Positions 12,935 to 27,072 are shown, numbered from the stretch's first letter. The stretch: 64,000 nt of DNA from Escherichia coli (GCF_050920415.1 NZ_CP169309.1), one strand, 5' to 3'. Program-made: numbers and translations. Notes: generated by a model from the sequence alone, not told the origin.

Positions 12935-13135
12935 TTACTTATTCCCCATTCGCGCGTCGTGTTCCTCTTGCGCTCGTTTGTTCTCCTGTGATTTGAAGTA
13001 ATAATTAACGGCAAATGTGCCTATGGTTGATAAGATACCCACAAATACAGCAACATCATTAATGGTTATCGCACCAAAAAAGGCCGTTACGGCCCCTACT
13101 GCATACGCGCACACCTCCCGTATTTTGTCGAACAT
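12935..13135 (-). CDS. pinholin-type holin (S21-like)
   Basis: 66 aa, two hydrophobic helices, charged C-terminus [15 protein letters not shown] resembling S21; GGAGG SD. Confidence 0.6.
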
Positions 13136-13153
13136 AGATTTACCTCCAACAAA

Positions 13154-13177
13154 GCAAAAACCCGGCGCGGGGCCGGG
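13154..13177 (-). terminator. rho-independent terminator just upstream of the holin (tR'-like)
   Basis: Minus strand CCCGGCCCCGCGCCGGG hairpin followed by TTTTT, about 20 nt before the holin RBS. Confidence 0.5.
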
Positions 13178-13413
13178 TAATTACAATTTCGCATTGTTAG
13201 GAAATATTTTAATCTATTTGTTTTTTATGCGCGATTATGGCTACAGTTTCTTAATTAATAGCCCATTATCAAGTAATAATTGCATTTGCTCGCGGCTCAT
13301 TAGTGAATCTTTCCAGTATGGGTCATCAATAGTCATAATCATCACTTTGTCGCCTTTTAGCATGTAGGCTATACCGAACAAAGTATGTGAATAAACACCA
13401 TCTTCGATCTCAT

Positions 13414-13596
13414 TCATAGTCCGCTAACCCTTACCACATCGCCGTTATAAAGCATGATTTCAATCATTGCTCGCGTCATCTCGATGAATGGCTTCCTCCA
13501 GTCACCACCATCAATACAGACACGAATATCATCACCTTCCACGCGGTAAAACATCTCGTCGATTAGTGTTACGGCGTATATACCATCTTCAATCAT
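13414..13596 (-). CDS. hypothetical protein, paralog of the adjacent gene
   Basis: 60 aa; shares a YR(V/L)EG...PF(I/L)(E/T)MT...I(I/E)(A/I)M core with the next ORF. Confidence 0.4.
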   Translation of the reverse strand: MIEDGIYAVTLIDEMFYRVEGDDIRVCIDGGDWRKPFIEMTRAMIEIMLYNGDVVRVSGL

Positions 13597-13866
13597 TTAA
13601 CTATCCTCTTTGAATAGCCTAAATTTAATATCGCCAATCTTGCGCCAGTATCCGTGATTAAACATCGCGATGATCTCCGCAGATGTCATAGTTAAAAACG
13701 GTTCATGCCACGGCTCAAGCTGGTGTAATCGCATCATTACGTGTTCACCTTCAAGGCGATAATAAGCGCGTGACGCCAATGACTGATAAACACCGTCATA
13801 TTTATGGTCGCTATTTCCCATTTTTACGCCCCTTAATGGCTCTTTTGATCTGCGTGCGCGTGGCAT
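13597..13866 (-). CDS. hypothetical protein, paralog of the adjacent gene
   Basis: 89-aa ORF, start uncertain; tandem duplicate of 13414-13596. Confidence 0.35.
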   Translation of the reverse strand: MPRARRSKEPLRGVKMGNSDHKYDGVYQSLASRAYYRLEGEHVMMRLHQLEPWHEPFLTMTSAEIIAMFNHGYWRKIGDIKFRLFKEDS

Positions 13867-14011
13867 CGACGAAAGCGATAAACACCGCTACAGGCCAGAA
13901 AGGAATCTCAAGGCCACCACGATCGAGATCATTAGATTTGATAAAACAATACATCAGGATAGCGCCAGCGATATAAAGGAGAAACACAGCAATGATAAGA
14001 CATTCAATCAT
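13811..14011 (-). CDS. small membrane protein
   Basis: 66 aa, two hydrophobic helices; GAGG SD; start overlaps the upstream ORF. Confidence 0.4.
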   Translation of the reverse strand: MIECLIIAVFLLYIAGAILMYCFIKSNDLDRGGLEIPFWPVAVFIAFVDATRTQIKRAIKGRKNGK

Positions 14012-14144
14012 CCTCTTTCTCCCCGCCTAAATATTGATATATTTCTTCAGCATTTTCCCCGCGCTCAAAACAATAATGTTCAAACATGCGCCAGTGTTCA
14101 CTAAGAAACATAACAATAAAATTGTTAACGTATTCGTCATCCAT
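14004..14144 (-). CDS. hypothetical small protein (46 aa, not in the ORF track)
   Basis: ATG 14144 with AGAGGA SD; fills the gap between flanking genes. Confidence 0.35.
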   Translation of the reverse strand: MDDEYVNNFIVMFLSEHWRMFEHYCFERGENAEEIYQYLGGEKEDD

Positions 14145-14146
14145 AG

Positions 14147-14398
14147 TTAATCATCCTCTTCATCGTCTTCTTGTTCAGCCAGGAAATCATCGACGGCACG
14201 GTAAGTGACTGGCGGGACGTATTCGAAATCATCACTATCAAGATCGAGCGTCCGGCTGTCGCCGTCGTCGTCCATCGTGTTCATCCCCAGCTCACCGAAA
14301 GGACCGTATCCAATGTGGCCCAGGTATTCGCAACCAGTCGTAAAGCCAGGGTATTCACCTTTACAACGGATTTTGTAAGGTTTATTTGATGCGCTCAA
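14147..14398 (-). CDS. highly acidic small protein (candidate DNA-mimic / anti-restriction)
   Basis: 83 aa with Asp/Glu-rich stretches (DDDGD, DLDSDD, EQEDDEEDD). Confidence 0.4.
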   Translation of the reverse strand: MSASNKPYKIRCKGEYPGFTTGCEYLGHIGYGPFGELGMNTMDDDGDSRTLDLDSDDFEYVPPVTYRAVDDFLAEQEDDEEDD

Positions 14399-14705
14399 TT
14401 TTTGAGTCTCCGTCTTCTGTCGGGGTTATTTTGTATTCTGCCGCCAGTTCTGCACCAACCAATTCAACCTCGATTTCAGGGAAAGGATTAAGCATCAGTG
14501 CGGCAAAAACAAAATGTTTAACGTGATTTGCATATTCAAGGTGTTTCACGTCAAAAGGTGGTTCCGATACGTGGAAGCATTTAACGTGCGCGTCGTCTTC
14601 AGTAGCTACACGGAAACATACGCCAGGTTGCCCGGCGAATTTGCCATTTTTTTCATCTTCTGAAATAGTGCCACGGAAAACTTTAACGCTGATAAATTTA
14701 GACAT
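14382..14705 (-). CDS. hypothetical protein
   Basis: 107-aa ORF in the co-directional array. Confidence 0.35.
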   Translation of the reverse strand: MSKFISVKVFRGTISEDEKNGKFAGQPGVCFRVATEDDAHVKCFHVSEPPFDVKHLEYANHVKHFVFAALMLNPFPEIEVELVGAELAAEYKITPTEDGDSKIERIK

Positions 14706-14708
14706 TGT

Positions 14709-14963
14709 TTATTCTCCTTCGTAAAAAACAGCTACCAGTTCAGGATTGTTTAATGGGTTGGAGCAAGAATAAAAACCACTTCGCAATAATCCTCTAAGCG
14801 CCTTTATTTTTCTGTGCGCCGGGATTGACTCGCTTAAATAGAAATCATCTTTCCTTTTGTCATAAGGTAGCTCGTAAAACCTACCATAATTGACGAATTG
14901 AACGACGCGGCTGTACTCACCATCAATCCTACTAACGCCGCGCCAAATCCTAAATACAACCAT
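14709..14963 (-). CDS. hypothetical protein
   Basis: 84-aa ORF, 3-nt gap to the downstream gene. Confidence 0.35.
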   Translation of the reverse strand: MVVFRIWRGVSRIDGEYSRVVQFVNYGRFYELPYDKRKDDFYLSESIPAHRKIKALRGLLRSGFYSCSNPLNNPELVAVFYEGE

Positions 14964-14965
14964 AA

Positions 14966-15265
14966 TTAAAACTCCGCACCAGGTAAGCTACGCGCTTCGT
15001 TAATATCGTCCTTTTCAATCCATTTCTTAGCGTGTATATCCATTACGGATATAGCGGCAACTGGCGCATAGTTATTTACTGAGTTGATGTGAAACAATTG
15101 GTTTTTGGTAAAAATCATGTCGTCGTCTGTTATATATAACCAGTCGCCGCGCTTACCAACAACAGTATGAGATCTTCCTAAGCTGTCTTTAAATTCATAA
15201 TTGCAGAAAACATCATCATTAGGCACTTCAACAAAACAGCACGCAATGAATTTAGCACTTTTCAT
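14966..15265 (-). CDS. hypothetical protein
   Basis: Start at MKSAKF with a GAAGGGTG SD; the longer table ORF would run through an intergenic hairpin. Confidence 0.35.
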   Translation of the reverse strand: MKSAKFIACCFVEVPNDDVFCNYEFKDSLGRSHTVVGKRGDWLYITDDDMIFTKNQLFHINSVNNYAPVAAISVMDIHAKKWIEKDDINEARSLPGAEF

Positions 15266-15308
15266 AATTACACCCTTCTGGTTTGATGGGGCCATCCGGC
15301 CCCGTGTT

Positions 15309-15449
15309 TTATTCTTCTTCGTCTCCTTTGAATCCTAAACACTCCGCGTATTCGTCAATGCTTAATGCTTCTTCCCCTGGTGCCAGTAATTCAAAATAGC
15401 GGGCGTATAACTCAAAAACCCAGGCCGGATATTTAGCGTTAGCGTTCAT
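15309..15449 (-). CDS. hypothetical small protein (46 aa, not in the ORF track)
   Basis: ATG 15449 preceded by an AAGGGGGTG SD. Confidence 0.35.
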   Translation of the reverse strand: MNANAKYPAWVFELYARYFELLAPGEEALSIDEYAECLGFKGDEEE

Positions 15450-15460
15450 GGTTCACCCCC

Positions 15461-15733
15461 TTAAGCCATGCGTGCGAATTCAAGCGCTTTGCATTCATAG
15501 TCTTCTTCTGCCTGTTCCACTACACGGATAATCATCTGATCGGCGTTTTCGAAGCCATAACCTTTAGCGAATTCATTAGCACCGCCTTCGTGGTCATGTT
15601 CTGCGTTCATCGCTTCCACATAGTGGAACTCAAGATTGTTAAGGTAGGGACTAGAAACGCCGTCCTCTTTTTCAATCAGATCCCAAATTGCATTGAATCG
15701 GGACTCTGTTTCTTCGTTAATCCAGCGTTTCAT
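15461..15733 (-). CDS. hypothetical acidic protein
   Basis: 90 aa; GGAGGG SD; preceded by a 108-bp intergenic region with an inverted repeat and a G13 tract. Confidence 0.4.
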   Translation of the reverse strand: MKRWINEETESRFNAIWDLIEKEDGVSSPYLNNLEFHYVEAMNAEHDHEGGANEFAKGYGFENADQMIIRVVEQAEEDYECKALEFARMA

Positions 15734-15774
15734 TTTTCTGCCCTCCGCATCGTTCTCTCTTCAGCTTCTTTATA

Positions 15775-15808
15775 ACAAAATGGCACTGCCGAAACAATGC
15801 CATTTTGT
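15775..15808. promoter_or_regulatory. inverted repeat ACAAAATGGCA-N12-TGCCATTTTGT (operator/promoter-like)
   Basis: Perfect 11-bp arms at 15775-15785 and 15798-15808; overlaps a TGTTATAAA extended -10-like element on the minus strand. Confidence 0.4.
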
Positions 15809-15815
15809 AAACTTT

Positions 15816-15828
15816 GGGGGGGGGGGGG
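15816..15828. repeat. homopolymeric G13 (C13 on the coding strand) tract
   Basis: 13 consecutive G at 15816-15828 in an intergenic region directly next to the inverted repeat. Confidence 0.9.
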
Positions 15829-15841
15829 TAGATCACGCTTT

Positions 15842-16057
15842 TTATTCGTCCTGCTTGAAGGCCACTACAACCGCGCGATCTTTGTTCTGAATCAACCACC
15901 AGCCACGCGCCTTGCTTGGCGCTGCATACCATAAGTGACCGTAAGTGTCTGTGACAACTAAAAACGGGTTTTTCTGTAATCCGCCTGGCTTTTCCGCTTC
16001 GTACTGGCAACCGTCCTCAAAACAATCAAGATCAGATCCGTGACACGTTAAAATCAT
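15842..16057 (-). CDS. hypothetical protein
   Basis: 71-aa ORF. Confidence 0.35.
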   Translation of the reverse strand: MILTCHGSDLDCFEDGCQYEAEKPGGLQKNPFLVVTDTYGHLWYAAPSKARGWWLIQNKDRAVVVAFKQDE

Positions 16058-16066
16058 ATTGCCCCC

Positions 16067-16279
16067 TTAATAACGCTCAAAACTGGCGGAAAAATCAATG
16101 CCTGATATCTCACCGCCACGATAAGTTGGCATAAATCCCCACACATCATCATGATCATCAATCAATACAAGCGCCACGCCAACATCGCTAATCCCATTGC
16201 CATAAACAATGTGAACATCATAAATACGCCCAGGAGTGAAAACGCTGTCATTACTTGAGTATGTGCATTTAACTTGCAT
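16067..16279 (-). CDS. hypothetical protein
   Basis: 70-aa ORF. Confidence 0.35.
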   Translation of the reverse strand: MQVKCTYSSNDSVFTPGRIYDVHIVYGNGISDVGVALVLIDDHDDVWGFMPTYRGGEISGIDFSASFERY

Positions 16280-16553
16280 TATCAGCCACCTTTAAATAAT
16301 TTTTTACATCAACATCAGCCGGATATCTGGAAAATTGCGCTAACCATTGTCCGGTAATGTTTTTCACCAGTGCATAATCAAGATCGCCGCAGTAGAATAC
16401 CTGGTACATTGCCCCTTCGTTATCACTCATAACGAATACCATCTGGTCAGTAGTCGCATTGCGCAATCTGTGAATTGTGTACGCCTGCCCCGTGGTAAAT
16501 TTATATTCGTTACAAGTTGTGCGGCAAAACATCCGGTCAAAATAGCTTTCCAT
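16269..16553 (-). CDS. hypothetical protein
   Basis: 94-aa ORF overlapping its neighbours. Confidence 0.35.
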   Translation of the reverse strand: MESYFDRMFCRTTCNEYKFTTGQAYTIHRLRNATTDQMVFVMSDNEGAMYQVFYCGDLDYALVKNITGQWLAQFSRYPADVDVKNYLKVADNAS

Positions 16554-16798
16554 CAGAAAACCCCTTTATAATCGACCGTGTATTTTGCTATCAGGTTCCA
16601 GTCGCAATAATTAAGCATGTCTCGCGGTTGCCAGCCTTTCATCCCGACCGCCCGCCGCGCAGCGTGACGGCGATAATCATCGTTATAGTCAGCTATGCAC
16701 CACGGCTGGAGAACAAACATATAATTTGCTTCATTAACCAGGATAGCCACCCGCTTTCCTGTTGCCTTGTCTTTTGCCCTGAAATAATTCACTTTCAT
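16553..16798 (-). CDS. hypothetical protein
   Basis: 81-aa ORF, ATGA-type overlap. Confidence 0.35.
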   Translation of the reverse strand: MKVNYFRAKDKATGKRVAILVNEANYMFVLQPWCIADYNDDYRRHAARRAVGMKGWQPRDMLNYCDWNLIAKYTVDYKGVF

Positions 16799-17010
16799 TT
16801 TAATACCTCGTCGATCAACATTTCTTCTTCCAGGTTAGCCGGACGTTTACGGAATATCCCGGCAAAAACCAGATCGTCGAGTAGGTCTTTACGCTTAAAT
16901 AACCACTCTTTCATTATTACCCCGTCATCGCTGCGATATACGACGCCGTTTTTCAGAAAATAAAAAGTGCGGGTATTTGTCTGAAGGTATAAATCTTCGT
17001 AAACGTCCAT
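16795..17010 (-). CDS. hypothetical protein
   Basis: 71-aa ORF. Confidence 0.35.
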   Translation of the reverse strand: MDVYEDLYLQTNTRTFYFLKNGVVYRSDDGVIMKEWLFKRKDLLDDLVFAGIFRKRPANLEEEMLIDEVLK

Positions 17011-17014
17011 GATA

Positions 17015-17242
17015 TTAACCCTCGACTATTTGCAGACCGCGCCCCTTGTCACCCACGAAGTCACCAAGACTGAACGTATACGACCACGCCGGATTGATAT
17101 AATGGTCATCAGCACCAGCGGCAATGAGATCAGCACCATTAATCATGCAAGTAACATCATCGCTATGAACTACATTAACTACCTTACCAACAACCTGTTT
17201 TAATGACGGGTATCCGTGATCGTGCAAGAATTTAACTTTCAT
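17015..17242 (-). CDS. hypothetical protein
   Basis: 75-aa ORF. Confidence 0.35.
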   Translation of the reverse strand: MKVKFLHDHGYPSLKQVVGKVVNVVHSDDVTCMINGADLIAAGADDHYINPAWSYTFSLGDFVGDKGRGLQIVEG

Positions 17243-17472
17243 TCCACTGTCTCCCAGCGGTCAATGCTGATTAAAAAATCCCGGATAGCGTGGCGTTCGT
17301 CGCGCGTTGGCTTGCGCTTCCGGTAAATCTTGAAATCGAACCATTCTTTTTCTTGTTCGAAATCCAGATCGTAAGCAAGCGCCTCAATATATCCGCATTC
17401 GTGATACTGGTACGCCACGCCAGCACGAACAAAAAAGCGGGTTTTATCCCGCTTGTGTTCATAAATACGCAT
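17239..17472 (-). CDS. hypothetical protein
   Basis: 77-aa ORF. Confidence 0.35.
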   Translation of the reverse strand: MRIYEHKRDKTRFFVRAGVAYQYHECGYIEALAYDLDFEQEKEWFDFKIYRKRKPTRDERHAIRDFLISIDRWETVE

Positions 17473-17482
17473 ATTTACCCCG

Positions 17483-17713
17483 TTATGCAGTTGTGTAGCT
17501 GTCTACCAGCTTTTCATCCTTCATTCTGGCAAGCTGTGCGATGTTCATCGTGTAGCCGCCATCAGAGAAAAGCCACTCCGCCGCCTTGCGACGAAAAGTA
17601 ATATCATCATGGTTGCGCGTCCATGTGGCGATCACCACGCGCTTTCCGTCAGTGGCAAACATAGATAATTCATTATCAACTACGTCGATAGCCTGCCAGA
17701 TTTTTAGCTCCAT
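17483..17713 (-). CDS. hypothetical protein
   Basis: 76-aa ORF. Confidence 0.35.
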   Translation of the reverse strand: MELKIWQAIDVVDNELSMFATDGKRVVIATWTRNHDDITFRRKAAEWLFSDGGYTMNIAQLARMKDEKLVDSYTTA

Positions 17714-18069
17714 GATTTATCCCCGTAAATTTTGAATAATTCCCGTGCTTCCTGATCTTCGAATAACTTCATATGCAGATCATGCAGGCGTCGCATTGTG
17801 CGGAAGCGTGGTCTGAATTCTTGACCCCTTTTAATGTATTTATCGCCAATTGAATAAATATGACCGTATGAATACCATCTATTACCGACCCAAATTAGAT
17901 AAATTTCACCCTCATAATTAAATTTGATTGTAAGCTCGTCAACCTCCATTATTAATCCTTTATCGAGTATATCATTTAGCATATCATCCCATTCTTTGAG
18001 GAATGGTTGTTGATAAAAACCGAAAAGAGTATTTACAGCGTGGCAAAGGTAATCAAGGATTATTTGCAT
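17704..18069 (-). CDS. hypothetical protein
   Basis: 121-aa ORF. Confidence 0.35.
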   Translation of the reverse strand: MQIILDYLCHAVNTLFGFYQQPFLKEWDDMLNDILDKGLIMEVDELTIKFNYEGEIYLIWVGNRWYSYGHIYSIGDKYIKRGQEFRPRFRTMRRLHDLHMKLFEDQEARELFKIYGDKSWS

Positions 18070-18073
18070 ATTA

Positions 18074-18289
18074 TCACCACATCATATAATAAACGTTATC
18101 GTTAGCTACTTCGTCGGCTTGTTCTTGTGTTAATAGCGGTGCGCTTTCCATAAAAGCATCAGAGTAATGCCACTCATAAACAAGCATACGCGCCCATTTG
18201 CGGCGCTGGCGCTTATTGTGTCGCAGATCATCAAAAGCCTTTAACGCTTTGTCATACGCCCTTACCAGGCGTTTACGGTTACTTTTCAT
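18074..18289 (-). CDS. hypothetical protein
   Basis: 71-aa ORF. Confidence 0.35.
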   Translation of the reverse strand: MKSNRKRLVRAYDKALKAFDDLRHNKRQRRKWARMLVYEWHYSDAFMESAPLLTQEQADEVANDNVYYMMW

Positions 18290-18299
18290 TTATTACACC

Positions 18300-18635
18300 T
18301 TAAAATCTGTATTGCCAGTAAATATCACACTTTATTGCGAATACCTTCACAGGATCAGGGCCGAATAGTGGATGTTGAATCGACTTGATTTCGTACCCCA
18401 TATAAGGCAATACGATAATCCGGTCTTTCTCATCATCAGATGGATAACCCCATTTAATGATTAATCTTGTGTACTCCCGCCCCTCAAGGCGTTTGCGCCA
18501 ATAGTCATTATAAAGCCGGTATTCCTCCACCTTCTTTCCAGCCCTGATAGCGTGGAAGTATTCTCCTTTTAAATTCAAATGCAGGTGCTTACTTGCCATT
18601 GCTATGATCCTGTAAACAGTCGTTATAGCCTTCAA
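18300..18635 (-). CDS. hypothetical protein (possible ASCH/PUA-like fold)
   Basis: 111-aa ORF; start uncertain; fold assignment is a weak impression only. Confidence 0.3.
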   Translation of the reverse strand: MKAITTVYRIIAMASKHLHLNLKGEYFHAIRAGKKVEEYRLYNDYWRKRLEGREYTRLIIKWGYPSDDEKDRIIVLPYMGYEIKSIQHPLFGPDPVKVFAIKCDIYWQYRF

Positions 18636-18870
18636 TGTATCCGGTTAATCCGGTGTTACTCACTGACCATTCAGCCGTCCGGCGCTTGATGGCTTCGTCC
18701 ATCGTGATTTCGCCACCTGGCCCGCCTGGCTCAATATATTTTTTTAAATCTCTTGCTATCCACGCCCTTAATTGTTGTGTATCACGGCACAACCTCGCGG
18801 ATAATGTCAGGTCATTAACCAGCTTTGCAAATAGATGTTCTTTTAATTTAGGCTTCATCATCGTCACCAC
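18589..18870 (-). CDS. hypothetical protein
   Basis: 93-aa ORF, start uncertain. Confidence 0.3.
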   Translation of the reverse strand: MVTMMKPKLKEHLFAKLVNDLTLSARLCRDTQQLRAWIARDLKKYIEPGGPGGEITMDEAIKRRTAEWSVSNTGLTGYIEGYNDCLQDHSNGK

Positions 18871-19048
18871 GCTTGTAAATTTTCACAGGCTTAATAGGGA
18901 TGGCGGGTAATTCACCTTCATTTAACGCGCTTGCCATACCCAATATTAAACGCGCTTCAGCACCAGTGACTTTTTTGCACCATGCGCCGCCTGTTTTATC
19001 TTCGAATAAGATAACGGCAAACTGATCGTTTATTTCCAGCTTATCCAT
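18848..19048 (-). CDS. hypothetical protein
   Basis: 66-aa ORF whose ATG overlaps the Q-like stop codon (TAATG). Confidence 0.35.
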   Translation of the reverse strand: MDKLEINDQFAVILFEDKTGGAWCKKVTGAEARLILGMASALNEGELPAIPIKPVKIYKRGDDDEA

Positions 19049-19770
19049 TATTCACCCCGTGTTACTCGTTTAATCTCACTTTCCGCGCGGGCCTCTTCTT
19101 TGAATAGCTCAGCTATGGCGTCTTCATAGAAAACCCGGTATTTTTTCCACCATGTTGATCGGCTTACCGGAAAGACAAGCTGGTTAACCGCCTGCCGGAC
19201 AAGATCTACCGGGAAACGCGAGTACCCGCGCCCGCCGCAGTGTTGGCACGTTTTGAATACTGGCATTTCCGCCGCTTCGCTGGCTGCTTTATCCGGTATC
19301 TCGCCGCGACCTTTGCATTGTTTACAATGATTGCGAACCTTTCCATGCCCCTTGCATTTTTTGCAAAGGTGTTTTTCTCCGTAGTCGTCAAACGTAAATT
19401 TATATCCGCCGCACTCCATACAAGTTTTTTCCGTCGCGGCGCTTTGGCAATAATCCCGAAACGCGAAAACGGCAACAAGAATAATAAGATCATTGCGTTG
19501 TTCTTCATTTAATTCCATCACGTATTCGTAATCTTTCGCCATAGCTCTTAAACGCTCTGTAAGTAATACTACGGCCCTGTGTTTTTCGGCTTGCGATAGT
19601 TCCATCTTCCCTAAAAAAGCGCTATATCCAAGCTCTACGCGCGATTGCGCCATACCAGCGGCGGTAAGCGCATCCGTCGTATTAAGTGCATCAGGTGATG
19701 TTCCCCGGCTTTCGTCTGATAATCGCGGTGATTTTGGGAAGTGGAATTTAAGAATGGATTCTAAATTCAT
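19048..19770 (-). CDS. antitermination protein Q-like
   Basis: 240 aa, cysteine-rich zinc-binding region (CMECGG...CKKCKGHGK...CKQCKGRG...CQHCGGRG), position after ninG/rusA as in lambdoid phages. Confidence 0.55.
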   Translation of the reverse strand: MNLESILKFHFPKSPRLSDESRGTSPDALNTTDALTAAGMAQSRVELGYSAFLGKMELSQAEKHRAVVLLTERLRAMAKDYEYVMELNEEQRNDLIILVAVFAFRDYCQSAATEKTCMECGGYKFTFDDYGEKHLCKKCKGHGKVRNHCKQCKGRGEIPDKAASEAAEMPVFKTCQHCGGRGYSRFPVDLVRQAVNQLVFPVSRSTWWKKYRVFYEDAIAELFKEEARAESEIKRVTRGE

Positions 19771-21149: not shown

Positions 21150-21270
21150 AATGCTCTCTCCTTTTCAGGTGATTTCTACGCATTTCAGCGCTGCCGGATT
21201 TTTAAAGAGCATTTCGTTTGCTTGAAGTATACAAAATGGATGCACCTGAACAAGGCAAAAAGCGCCATTA

Positions 21271-21286: not shown

Positions 21287-21308
21287 CAATGACGCCATTT
21301 TGTAAACT

Positions 21309-22067
21309 TTAGTCCGGTAAAACGCGGTTAAGCGTAGTCCGCGTGATGGCCCGGTCGTTAGCCAGGAATACAGCACGGGCGAAGCCGCGCGGCGTTAGTG
21401 ACCGGATCATCTTTGTTCGCTTTGCCCGGCCTCCGGTTTTCGCCCACCCAGGGTTATCACCAGAGTTAAGATCTACAGGTCTAAAAATCGGCTGTTTAAA
21501 TCCGTTGCCGCACCAGATGCAAGTTTTCTTCGTGTACGCGTCGCGCGCCGGGTAAACATCCGGGAAAGCAGGATGCTTGTCATCTTCCGGCAGATAGCCA
21601 CCGTAAGCGCACGGATTGAAGATAAAATCTGGTTTACGCCATAACGTTGACAGTGCTCCTACCGGATTTTCCACCATCCACGGGACGTTATACATGTCAG
21701 CCAGTGTTTCGACCAGTTTCGCGTTATATGCCGCCTTCACCTGGAAGTCAGGATCTTTTTCACGCTTGCTGGAGAACCAACGAGCGCCGGACACGGCGAG
21801 ATCGTCGCATGGTGGGAAGGCAAAAATAATGTCAGGATCTGGATAAACAGACAATTCAGGGGAGAATATTACCAGGAAATGGCTATCAATCCAGACATTG
21901 ACATATTCAATATTGGGATGAATTACTTTTACTCCGTCATAATCCCCGTGATTAGCGCCGTCATAGTTGAAGCAATAGCACTTATATCCAGCTTCAGCCC
22001 AATCTTTAACGGCGTACCCGCTGCCATCGTAAAGCGACCATACCACCCAATTTTTAAGACTGCTCAT
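21309..22067 (-). CDS. DNA cytosine-5 methyltransferase-like protein (compact, PCD variant)
   Basis: 252 aa with motif I-like LYDGSG, motif IV-like FPPCDDLAVSG (D where C5-MTases have Q), motif VI-like ENPVG. Confidence 0.45.
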   Translation of the reverse strand: MSSLKNWVVWSLYDGSGYAVKDWAEAGYKCYCFNYDGANHGDYDGVKVIHPNIEYVNVWIDSHFLVIFSPELSVYPDPDIIFAFPPCDDLAVSGARWFSSKREKDPDFQVKAAYNAKLVETLADMYNVPWMVENPVGALSTLWRKPDFIFNPCAYGGYLPEDDKHPAFPDVYPARDAYTKKTCIWCGNGFKQPIFRPVDLNSGDNPGWAKTGGRAKRTKMIRSLTPRGFARAVFLANDRAITRTTLNRVLPD

Positions 22068-26793: not shown

Positions 26794-27072
26794 TTAATCG
26801 TTAATAACCTGGCCCATACGCCCGCGATATTTGCGCATACGTGGATCGACATATTCAGGCCAATGCATATCCGGTTTTCTTTGCAGTGGGTAAAAACTTG
26901 CCTGCCAGTTGTCGAACCATATTTGCTTTGCGTACAGGTCACTAAATCTTTTTGCCATCCGATCCGCTGCCGTGCCGCATAAAAAAAGCCCGCGATCGAT
27001 TTGATCACGGGCTTCTTTTAATACTTGCTCTTTTGTTCGTGGTTGCGGTGGCGGTTTTAGATAATCACTCAT
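26794..27072 (-). CDS. hypothetical protein
   Basis: About 92 aa starting MSDYLKPPPQ; the upstream extension overlaps ssb. Confidence 0.3.
   Translation of the reverse strand: MSDYLKPPPQPRTKEQVLKEARDQIDRGLFLCGTAADRMAKRFSDLYAKQIWFDNWQASFYPLQRKPDMHWPEYVDPRMRKYRGRMGQVIND

Follow-up and report, generated by a model that had tools for sequence, protein, structure and literature searches.

In the canonical Q cassette, the gene for the antiterminator Q is directly followed by the promoter pR', a sigma-dependent pause element (SDPE), then a terminator and the late genes, and the Q protein of lambda (Qlambda) loads at the sigma-dependent pause that adjoins pR' (PMC9388147). A Q-like protein is also present in the mEpimmI phages, a group of Nus-dependent, "non-lambdoid" temperate coliphages described in 2025, which have in addition an N-like protein (Gp17) and three nut sites and whose prophage type was reported to be common in human gut samples (PMC11893012). 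In that description the variable genes were treated collectively, as hypothetical or variable, and the late promoter was not mapped (PMC11893012). Here we report on a block of 24 small genes that lies between the Q gene and the holin gene of a prophage in a 64,000-nucleotide stretch of Escherichia coli DNA (NZ_CP169309.1; hereafter the window, with positions counted from its first letter). The block is the usual Q-to-lysis array of the mEpimmI (mEp021-like) temperate coliphages. An original prediction, made from the sequence of the window alone, had described an island of about 23 small co-directional genes at 13414–19048 and had set it against the layout of lambda. The contrast with lambda is real, but it is better put as an array that separates Q from a conserved module of candidate pR', pause site and terminator before the holin gene.

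Layout of the block

On the minus strand of the window, the Q-like open reading frame (ORF) is followed by 24 packed, co-directional ORFs of 46–121 amino acids (aa), named g01 to g24, which run from 19048 down to 13241 (ORF table and re-extraction), and then by a GC-rich hairpin with a T-run (t5), the holin gene, a lysozyme gene and an Rz-like gene. The range given in the original prediction does hold 23 such ORFs, on the minus strand, but it left out g24. As had been noted, the stop codon of Q overlaps the next start codon (TAATG, one shared base), and the terminator hairpin (13160–13178) and the holin gene (12935–13135) follow the block. With the ATG starts picked by the RefSeq annotators in the closest relative, the LSU61 prophage, 12 of the 24 junctions are overlapping, 10 have a gap of 0–15 nucleotides (nt) and two are longer (43 and 108 nt), so that 22 of them are at most 15 nt. 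Shine-Dalgarno-like GGAG or GGGG motifs are found close upstream of most starts in the block, and its G+C content is 0.42–0.44 versus 0.47–0.49 in the flanks.

Two tandem paralog pairs had been proposed, yet paralogy was supported for one family only, the tandem triplet g22–g23–g24 (blastp 1e-7 and 2e-6; hhalign probability 96%). The candidate pairs g11/g12 and g12/g19 were rejected, having only a short F-T-x-G-x-x-Y motif in common (hhalign probability ≤10%). Also rejected was a 97-aa alternative-frame ORF at 15717–16010 (minus strand) over g13 and the 108-nt gap, which a greedy ORF pick returned in both the window and LSU61 and which was taken as spurious because the frame of g13 itself is conserved.

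The features are listed below in the order of transcription. Fractions of 51 refer to distinct relatives, that is, to the 13 genomes compared here plus 46 IMG/VR contigs that a search with Q retrieved, counted as distinct slot sequences; the ratio of nonsynonymous to synonymous substitution rates (dN/dS) was computed against homologs in 12 related genomes.

19048–19770, minus strand: Q antiterminator of the lambda type, 240 aa (PHROG 127, 2e-78; PDB 7UBM, 4e-37; two Pfam Antiterm matches)
18848–19048, minus strand: g01, 66 aa (phrog_35000; dN/dS 0.05; 48/51)
18589–18861, minus strand: g02, 90 aa, ATG start as in the LSU61 annotation (phrog_29262; dN/dS 0.24; 46/51)
18300–18599, minus strand: g03, 99 aa, weakly ASCH-like (phrog_625)
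18074–18289, minus strand: g04, 71 aa, basic (phrog_8758, C-terminal half of the profile; 49/51)
17704–18069, minus strand: g05, 121 aa (phrog_16975; 50/51; 40% homologs in Edwardsiella phages)
17483–17713, minus strand: g06, 76 aa, core, homolog of mEp021_38 (51/51; dN/dS 0.13)
17239–17472, minus strand: g07, 77 aa, core (50/51; dN/dS 0.04)
17015–17242, minus strand: g08, 75 aa, core (phrog_5009; 51/51)
16795–17010, minus strand: g09, 71 aa, core, homolog (93%) of mEp021_41 (51/51)
16553–16798, minus strand: g10, 81 aa, core (phrog_38609; 50/51)
16269–16553, minus strand: g11, 94 aa, rare (no PHROG match; 8/51; dN/dS 0.08)
16067–16279, minus strand: g12, 70 aa, with 1–4 distant tandem copies in relatives
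15842–16057, minus strand: g13, 71 aa (no PHROG match; 27/51; dN/dS 0.21)
15775–15808, minus strand: internal terminator-like hairpin found by folding, 15-base-pair (bp) stem followed by TATAAAG, in the 108-nt gap between g13 and g14
15461–15733, minus strand: g14, 90 aa, acidic (net charge -13; phrog_7287)
15309–15449, minus strand: g15, 46 aa, acidic (phrog_22232; 36/51)
15286–15305, minus strand: GC hairpin (GGGGCC-GGAT-GGCCCC) upstream of g16 (in 12 of the 13 genomes)
14966–15265, minus strand: g16, 99 aa, internal ATG as in the LSU61 annotation
14709–14963, minus strand: g17, 84 aa (phrog_32200)
14382–14705, minus strand: g18, 107 aa
14147–14398, minus strand: g19, 83 aa, very acidic
14004–14144, minus strand: g20, 46 aa, acidic (phrog_15754)
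13811–14011, minus strand: g21, 66 aa, small membrane protein (phrog_10061; 46/51)
13597–13821, minus strand: g22, 74 aa, paralog family phrog_15318
13414–13596, minus strand: g23, 60 aa, paralog family phrog_15318
13241–13417, minus strand: g24, 58 aa, paralog family phrog_15318
13136–13223, minus strand: 88-bp regulatory module (candidate -10, pause element, t5 and the ribosome-binding site (RBS) of the holin gene)
12935–13135, minus strand: holin, first late gene

Coding capacity of the 24 ORFs

The block consists of 24 real protein-coding small genes. For every one of the ORFs dN/dS was between 0.04 and 0.48, values of purifying selection (Q and the holin gene, used as comparators, gave 0.09 and 0.11), so that the lack of conservation that the original prediction had allowed for was found in none of them. 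A PHROG family was matched by 20 of the 24 ORFs, and the four without such a match had dN/dS values of 0.08–0.28. AlphaFold2 models were compact, being confident or moderately confident, with predicted local distance difference test scores (pLDDT) of 96.5 for g23 and 79 for g18. It is therefore very improbable that AT-rich spacer DNA accounts for many of the ORFs, as reading frames open by chance: four lack a PHROG match and no Pfam domain was found in any, but the dN/dS values (below 0.5 throughout, those four included), the PHROG matches and the two models exclude such a reading, and the order of the genes is kept across the 51 relatives and Shine-Dalgarno motifs are present.

Conservation of the array among the mEpimmI phages

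A megablast search with the block returned mEp021-like phages, namely MagusPhagus (81% coverage, 85.7% identity), mEp010, mEp554, mEp044, mEp013, mEp021 and mEp515; across these phages, DNA coverage was 49–81% at about 86% identity. Of 5426 complete E. coli genomes, 34 also gave a match to the block, with the prophage of O157:H7 LSU61 (96.8%) at the top, and the prophage type that carries it is present in roughly 0.6% of them (33–34 of 5426). The relationship extends beyond the block, in that tblastn identified homologs in the window of the mEp021 proteins Rep (CI-like; 97%), Gp17 (95%), Erf (92%), anti-RecBCD (94%) and Q (95%). The homologs of gp17, the repressor gene, erf and the anti-RecBCD gene lie upstream of the block on the same strand, and NinG and RusA homologs are present upstream of Q. 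Likewise, the flanks of the array are those common to mEpimmI phages: a lambda-type Q on one side and, on the other, t5 followed by an HP1-family holin, lysozyme and Rz. Every feature of these phages that was tested was found in the window.

The array itself has syntenic counterparts. The mEp021 counterparts mEp021_38 to mEp021_45 are g06–g10 (84–97% identity) and g16, g17 and g24 (58–68%), and homologs of most remaining array genes were found in mEp010, mEp044, mEp554 and MagusPhagus; the mEp phages lack g11 and g14. Those four phages and many prophages share the gene families of the block and their order, so that its layout is the normal one of a described phage family, which comes close to an outcome that the original prediction had named as one that would refute it. 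Gene order is identical across the 13 genomes, and the slots differ by deletion, by tandem copy number (of g12-like and g17-like genes and of the g22–g24 family) and by allele replacement. Greedy ORF clustering, which merged g03 with g04 and called an alternative frame in place of g13, was used for order and copy number only.

The length of the slot varies. Among the 13 genomes, Q and the holin gene are as close as 2.0 kilobases (kb) in mEp021, with 8 genes, and at most 7.3 kb apart, and the number of ORFs among relatives ranges from 8 to about 29. The 51 distinct slots measure 2006–7256 nt with a median of 5565, so that the slot of the window (24 genes, 5915 nt) is typical of the family and mEp021 is at its short end. 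Five genes, g06–g10, were found in 50–51 of the 51 distinct relatives at 63–100% amino-acid identity, and g01, g02, g04, g05, g18, g19 and g21 were found in at least 45, whereas the other twelve (g03, g11–g17, g20 and g22–g24) were found in 8–41. The Q-proximal genes g01–g10 are core or near-core, and the distal part is variable via deletion, tandem duplication and allele replacement. Even the closest genome, LSU61, is a mosaic in which g03 (84%), g04 (79%) and g17 (87%) stand among neighbors of 100%, and its slot has two genes more than that of the window.

The proposal that the slot is one for variable cargo held in part. Slot length, ORF number, the low G+C and the occurrence of g14 and g03 in unrelated phages agree with it, but about half of the block is conserved family backbone and only about half is flexible, and there is no island peculiar to the prophage of the window. 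The layout is already present in deposited genomes. New here are the allele combination and, as annotations rather than new biology, the partition into core and flexible genes and the candidate late-promoter module. The block makes up about a tenth of the prophage, and no function is known for any of its roughly 28 gene families.

Q and the module upstream of the holin gene

Q of the window belongs to the Qlambda family, as judged by its matches to PDB entries 7UBM and 4MO1 (E = 2e-23 for the latter) and by two matches to Pfam PF03589. Relative to Qlambda it has a Cys-rich insert of about 33 aa (residues ~115–147) with extra CxxC pairs, scored as DnaJ_CXXCXGXG. The position of the insert is that of the zinc-ribbon "arm" by which Qlambda contacts the Q binding element (QBE).

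The sole non-coding stretch that is conserved in every relative is the 88-bp module directly upstream of the holin gene. Its parts are TAAAAT (13206–13211), a spacer of 7 nt, AACAAT (13193–13198), t5 with its U-tract and the holin RBS. Identity over the module was 91–100% in all 40 public genomes that have it, the TTAAAATA…CTAACAATGCGAAA core was found in all 51 distinct slots and the t5 pattern in 50, and in 57 loci, which fall into 35 versions that differ in their upstream sequence, no change was seen in TAAAAT, AACAAT, CTAACAATGCGAAA or the t5 stem, and only the t5 loop varied. The hairpin t5 consists of ACCCGGCCCCGCGCCGGGT, with a 7-bp GC stem, followed by a T-run (folding energy -25 kcal/mol, z -3.5). 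It is identical to TERM_5 of mEp021, which was counted among the experimentally demonstrated terminators of that phage (PMC11893012). In the lambda record pR' reads TTGACT, 17 nt, TAAATT, 6 nt and AACGAT, and the layout of the module is parallel to it. We therefore propose that late promoter, pause site and terminator are combined in this compact module, with the t5 stem starting about 21 nt after the presumed transcription start (~+22). A QBE could not be identified in the module. The module was found in mEpimmI genomes only, with no phage in which Q lies directly beside it. A boxB-like hairpin in the module (ACAAT-GCGAA-ATTGT) was considered and rejected, as the common T>C variant disrupts one pair and no second change restores it.

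Compared by sequence with the lambda Q–pR'–SDPE–tR' cassette (PMC9388147), the window has a homologous Q and, in a like order and with similar spacing, a candidate -10, a -10-like element at a presumed +1 to +6 and a terminator before the lysis genes, t5 being the counterpart of the intrinsic terminator that precedes the late genes. It differs in that Q and its presumed target are split. In lambda Q lies about 80 bp from pR', whereas here 5.8 kb separate it from the candidate promoter, with 24 genes (5.9 kb) ahead of the terminator; the lambda terminator ends at about +194, whereas t5 would start at about +22; and here the -35 is poor and Q carries the Cys-rich insert.

Transcription of the array

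On the basis of sequence features, we consider it somewhat more probable than not, and hold with moderate confidence, that the array is the far end of an N-antiterminated early operon and that a compact Q-dependent late switch lies at the holin gene. The rightward early operon would run from gp17 (N-like) through erf, ssb, the methylase genes, NinG, RusA and Q into the array, which RNA polymerase would transcribe, past the internal terminator, once it had been modified by the N-like Gp17. The late switch would comprise the -10 element TAAAAT, a lambda-like sigma-dependent pause at AACAAT (about +1 to +6) and t5 from about +22, and Q, itself encoded on the early transcript, would act on this switch in trans, some 5.8 kb downstream of its own gene. 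The array is assigned to the transcript of Q because of the TAATG overlap and because 22 of 24 junctions are at most 15 nt, and the position of the candidate pR' and terminator at the holin gene would place the array upstream of the late promoter, as early-operon sequence rather than late-unit cargo. This placement predicts that a transcript starts near 13198 and that t5 is read through in a Q-dependent way. Were it confirmed, a lambda-type Q would be shown to work several kb from its own gene and on a terminator that begins only about 20 nt after the start site. Current understanding is not overturned by the block.

It is unlikely that the array lies instead inside the late transcription unit, with a Q-dependent promoter that is at or within the 3' end of Q, or else inside g01, the array as a long late leader and t5 as the last of several overridden terminators. 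The canonical pR' does come directly after Q (PMC9388147), the internal terminator and t5 could both be read through by Q-modified polymerase, and the -35 of the candidate holin promoter is weak. However, there is no conserved non-coding DNA after Q, because Q adjoins the g06 homolog in mEp021 and g01 in the window, so that the next gene varies among relatives, and an alignment of the relatives revealed only ordinary codon conservation, with no conserved promoter-like block, in the last 360 nt of Q. The only universal non-coding element is the holin-upstream module, which has the -10/pause layout of lambda pR'.

We regard as similarly improbable that the whole array, or its distal half (g14–g24), is a moron-like unit, expressed from the prophage to the benefit of the lysogen, for instance through superinfection exclusion or defense. 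The G+C content below that of the flanks, the small membrane protein g21, the enclosure of the distal half, which is the most variable part, between the internal terminator and t5, and the sequence TGTTATAAA after the internal terminator, which resembles an extended -10, would all be in keeping with such a unit. As a promoter, though, TGTTATAAA was rejected and kept only as a rival of low weight: its TATAAA lacks the conserved final T (at -7), and strain PAR has TACAAA. Promoter-like sites are not enriched in the region (17 found versus 21.9 ± 4.4 expected), and TGTTATAAA is the sole candidate for a promoter of the unit; terminators are present, but the array does not fit the definition of a moron, which calls for a promoter and a terminator of its own. 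The proteins encoded (46–107 aa) are far below the size of typical defense enzymes and have no match in PADLOC (E ≤ 0.1, concatenated queries), the genes are translationally coupled in one long array, and g14 is common to virulent phages, which have no lysogenic state.

Several findings also weigh against the proposal of an early operon with a late switch at the holin gene. The -35 of the candidate promoter is poor in every variant (TCGCGC, TTGTAG; at most 3 of 6 positions) and there is no extended -10, which is why a consensus scan did not report this promoter. The ACAAT/ATTGT hairpin in the module has an uncompensated T>C variant, which makes the shares of DNA and RNA signal in the module ambiguous, and TGTTATAAA, by its resemblance to an extended -10, could give the distal half a promoter of its own. 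Finally, the placement of the products in a class of host takeover or counter-defense proteins, discussed below, draws only on size, charge, distribution and position.

As packed and overlapping small accessory genes with embedded terminators, the array is similar to the nin region of lambda, and like nin it would be read by N-modified polymerase as part of the rightward early operon. The two differ in position, in that nin lies between P and Q and the array downstream of Q, with the NinF, NinG and RusA homologs of the window upstream of Q, and no named nin family was matched among the 24 ORFs in PHROGs or NCBIfam. In lambdoid phages of the 933W type, which convert their host to Shiga toxin (Stx) production, the interval from Q to the holin gene holds several kb of accessory genes, as Q-dependent late cargo downstream of pR'/tR'. 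The array superficially resembles them in having several kb of accessory genes in this interval, but here the candidate pR' and terminator are downstream of the array, and it contains no toxin or tRNA genes.

Functions of the array products

In agreement with the original prediction, none of the 24 ORFs could be assigned a function: the PHROG families matched were all labelled as of unknown function, and NCBIfam, searched with concatenated queries, gave nothing meaningful. A PDB sequence search of all 24 ORFs gave no match. No Pfam match was obtained for the 24 ORFs as X-linker concatenated queries, a result that excludes strong matches only, because g03 searched alone recovered a weak match to ASCH (PF04266; E = 0.037, 25 of 103 profile positions). 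The same caveat holds for the NCBIfam and PADLOC runs, which were also concatenated and of which the latter returned no known anti-phage defense family at E ≤ 0.1 for any ORF. By this search the array is not a member of any known defense system, and the defense or anti-defense role that had been suggested found no support in these searches or elsewhere.

Individual genes offer some indications. Homologs of g03 are named RNA-binding or ASCH proteins by PGAP, and the gene is widespread, being present in 332 phage records that include Stx phages, HK022 and Jersey-like virulent phages. For g14, homologs with 80% amino-acid identity were found in virulent rV5-like myophages (genomes of 135–140 kb) and weaker ones in T1-like and Jersey-like phages, and its 149 records cover several phage types. 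This distribution points to g14 as a small accessory gene that temperate and virulent phages have exchanged recently. In contrast to these two, g05, g18, g19 and the g22–g24 family are essentially restricted to the mEpimmI group. The g09 homolog mEp021_41 was detected by mass spectrometry in purified virions and is conserved in all genomes of the authors' set (PMC11893012). The small membrane protein and the very acidic 83-aa protein that had been noted are g21, with a strongly hydrophobic N-terminal segment (Kyte-Doolittle mean 2.66 over 19 residues), and g19 (22 Asp plus Glu residues, net charge -16). The model of g23 has a beta3-alpha-beta fold whose matches were to uncharacterized phage proteins only, and neither it nor the model of g18 gave an informative fold match.

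That virulent phages carry g14 and g03 suggests that at least these two act in lytic growth and not in lysogenic conversion. Judging from the sequences, the array products are most likely lytic-cycle accessory proteins that serve host takeover, counter-defense or phage housekeeping, and are unlikely to be lysogen-expressed defense genes. A broader proposal, which we put forward tentatively and think less probable than not to hold in full, is that the family as a whole has a split Q cassette, with Q and a compact pR'/pause/terminator unit that yields a terminated RNA of about 45 nt lying 2–7 kb apart, and that the array between them encodes undescribed lytic effectors, some of which would be new counter-defense or host-takeover proteins with folds that lack a solved relative. 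Among the candidate effectors are several small proteins that are strongly acidic, the family-specific paralogs in an array of 1–3 copies and the five core proteins, one of which has the virion-associated homolog. The array is a defined and compact candidate set for screens for counter-defense and host-takeover genes.

Other non-coding elements

The internal hairpin in the g13/g14 gap is conserved in 11 of the 13 genomes and in 38 of the 51 relatives, with a T/A-rich stretch after the stem, and ARNold terminators are annotated at its site in mEp010, mEp554 and mEp044. A TTTACA upstream of this hairpin was rejected as part of a promoter, there being no usable -10. Just upstream of the hairpin the gene strand has a run of 13 C (15816–15828), which reads CCCCCGC in the closest relative; it may be prone to slippage, or it may be an artefact of the assembly. 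The GC hairpin ACGGGGCCGGATGGCCCCAT, located in the 43-nt gap that precedes g16, varies in its loop among the 12 genomes that have it; it has no U-run on the gene strand and a T-run on the opposite one, and might contribute to RNA stability or act as an antisense terminator.

The best sigma-70 match of the 11.5-kb region is on the plus strand at 18063–18090 (TTTGCA, 16 nt, TATAAT; 10 of 12 positions), antisense to the g04/g05 junction, and is kept in most relatives, yet it lies in coding DNA. An Rfam search over 11–30 kb returned nothing in the block and one sub-threshold match only, to the Thr operon leader, at 26979–27070 (minus strand) between the ssb and anti-RecBCD homologs, which is probably due to chance (29 bits versus a gathering threshold of 55, E = 0.069).

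The gene strand carries two exact copies of a 17-mer, AAAGTTTACAAAATGGC, at 15799–15815 and 21294–21310, and each copy forms the 5' flank and the first stem bases of a terminator hairpin, one being the array-internal hairpin and the other the hairpin after the cytosine methyltransferase gene. The second copy is also present in the LSU61 prophage. Downstream of the post-methyltransferase terminator, at 21180–21215, are a boxA-like sequence, GCTCTTTAA, and then a short hairpin with a GAAA loop, in a location that matches the placement of nutR2 in the description of the mEpimmI phages (PMC11893012).

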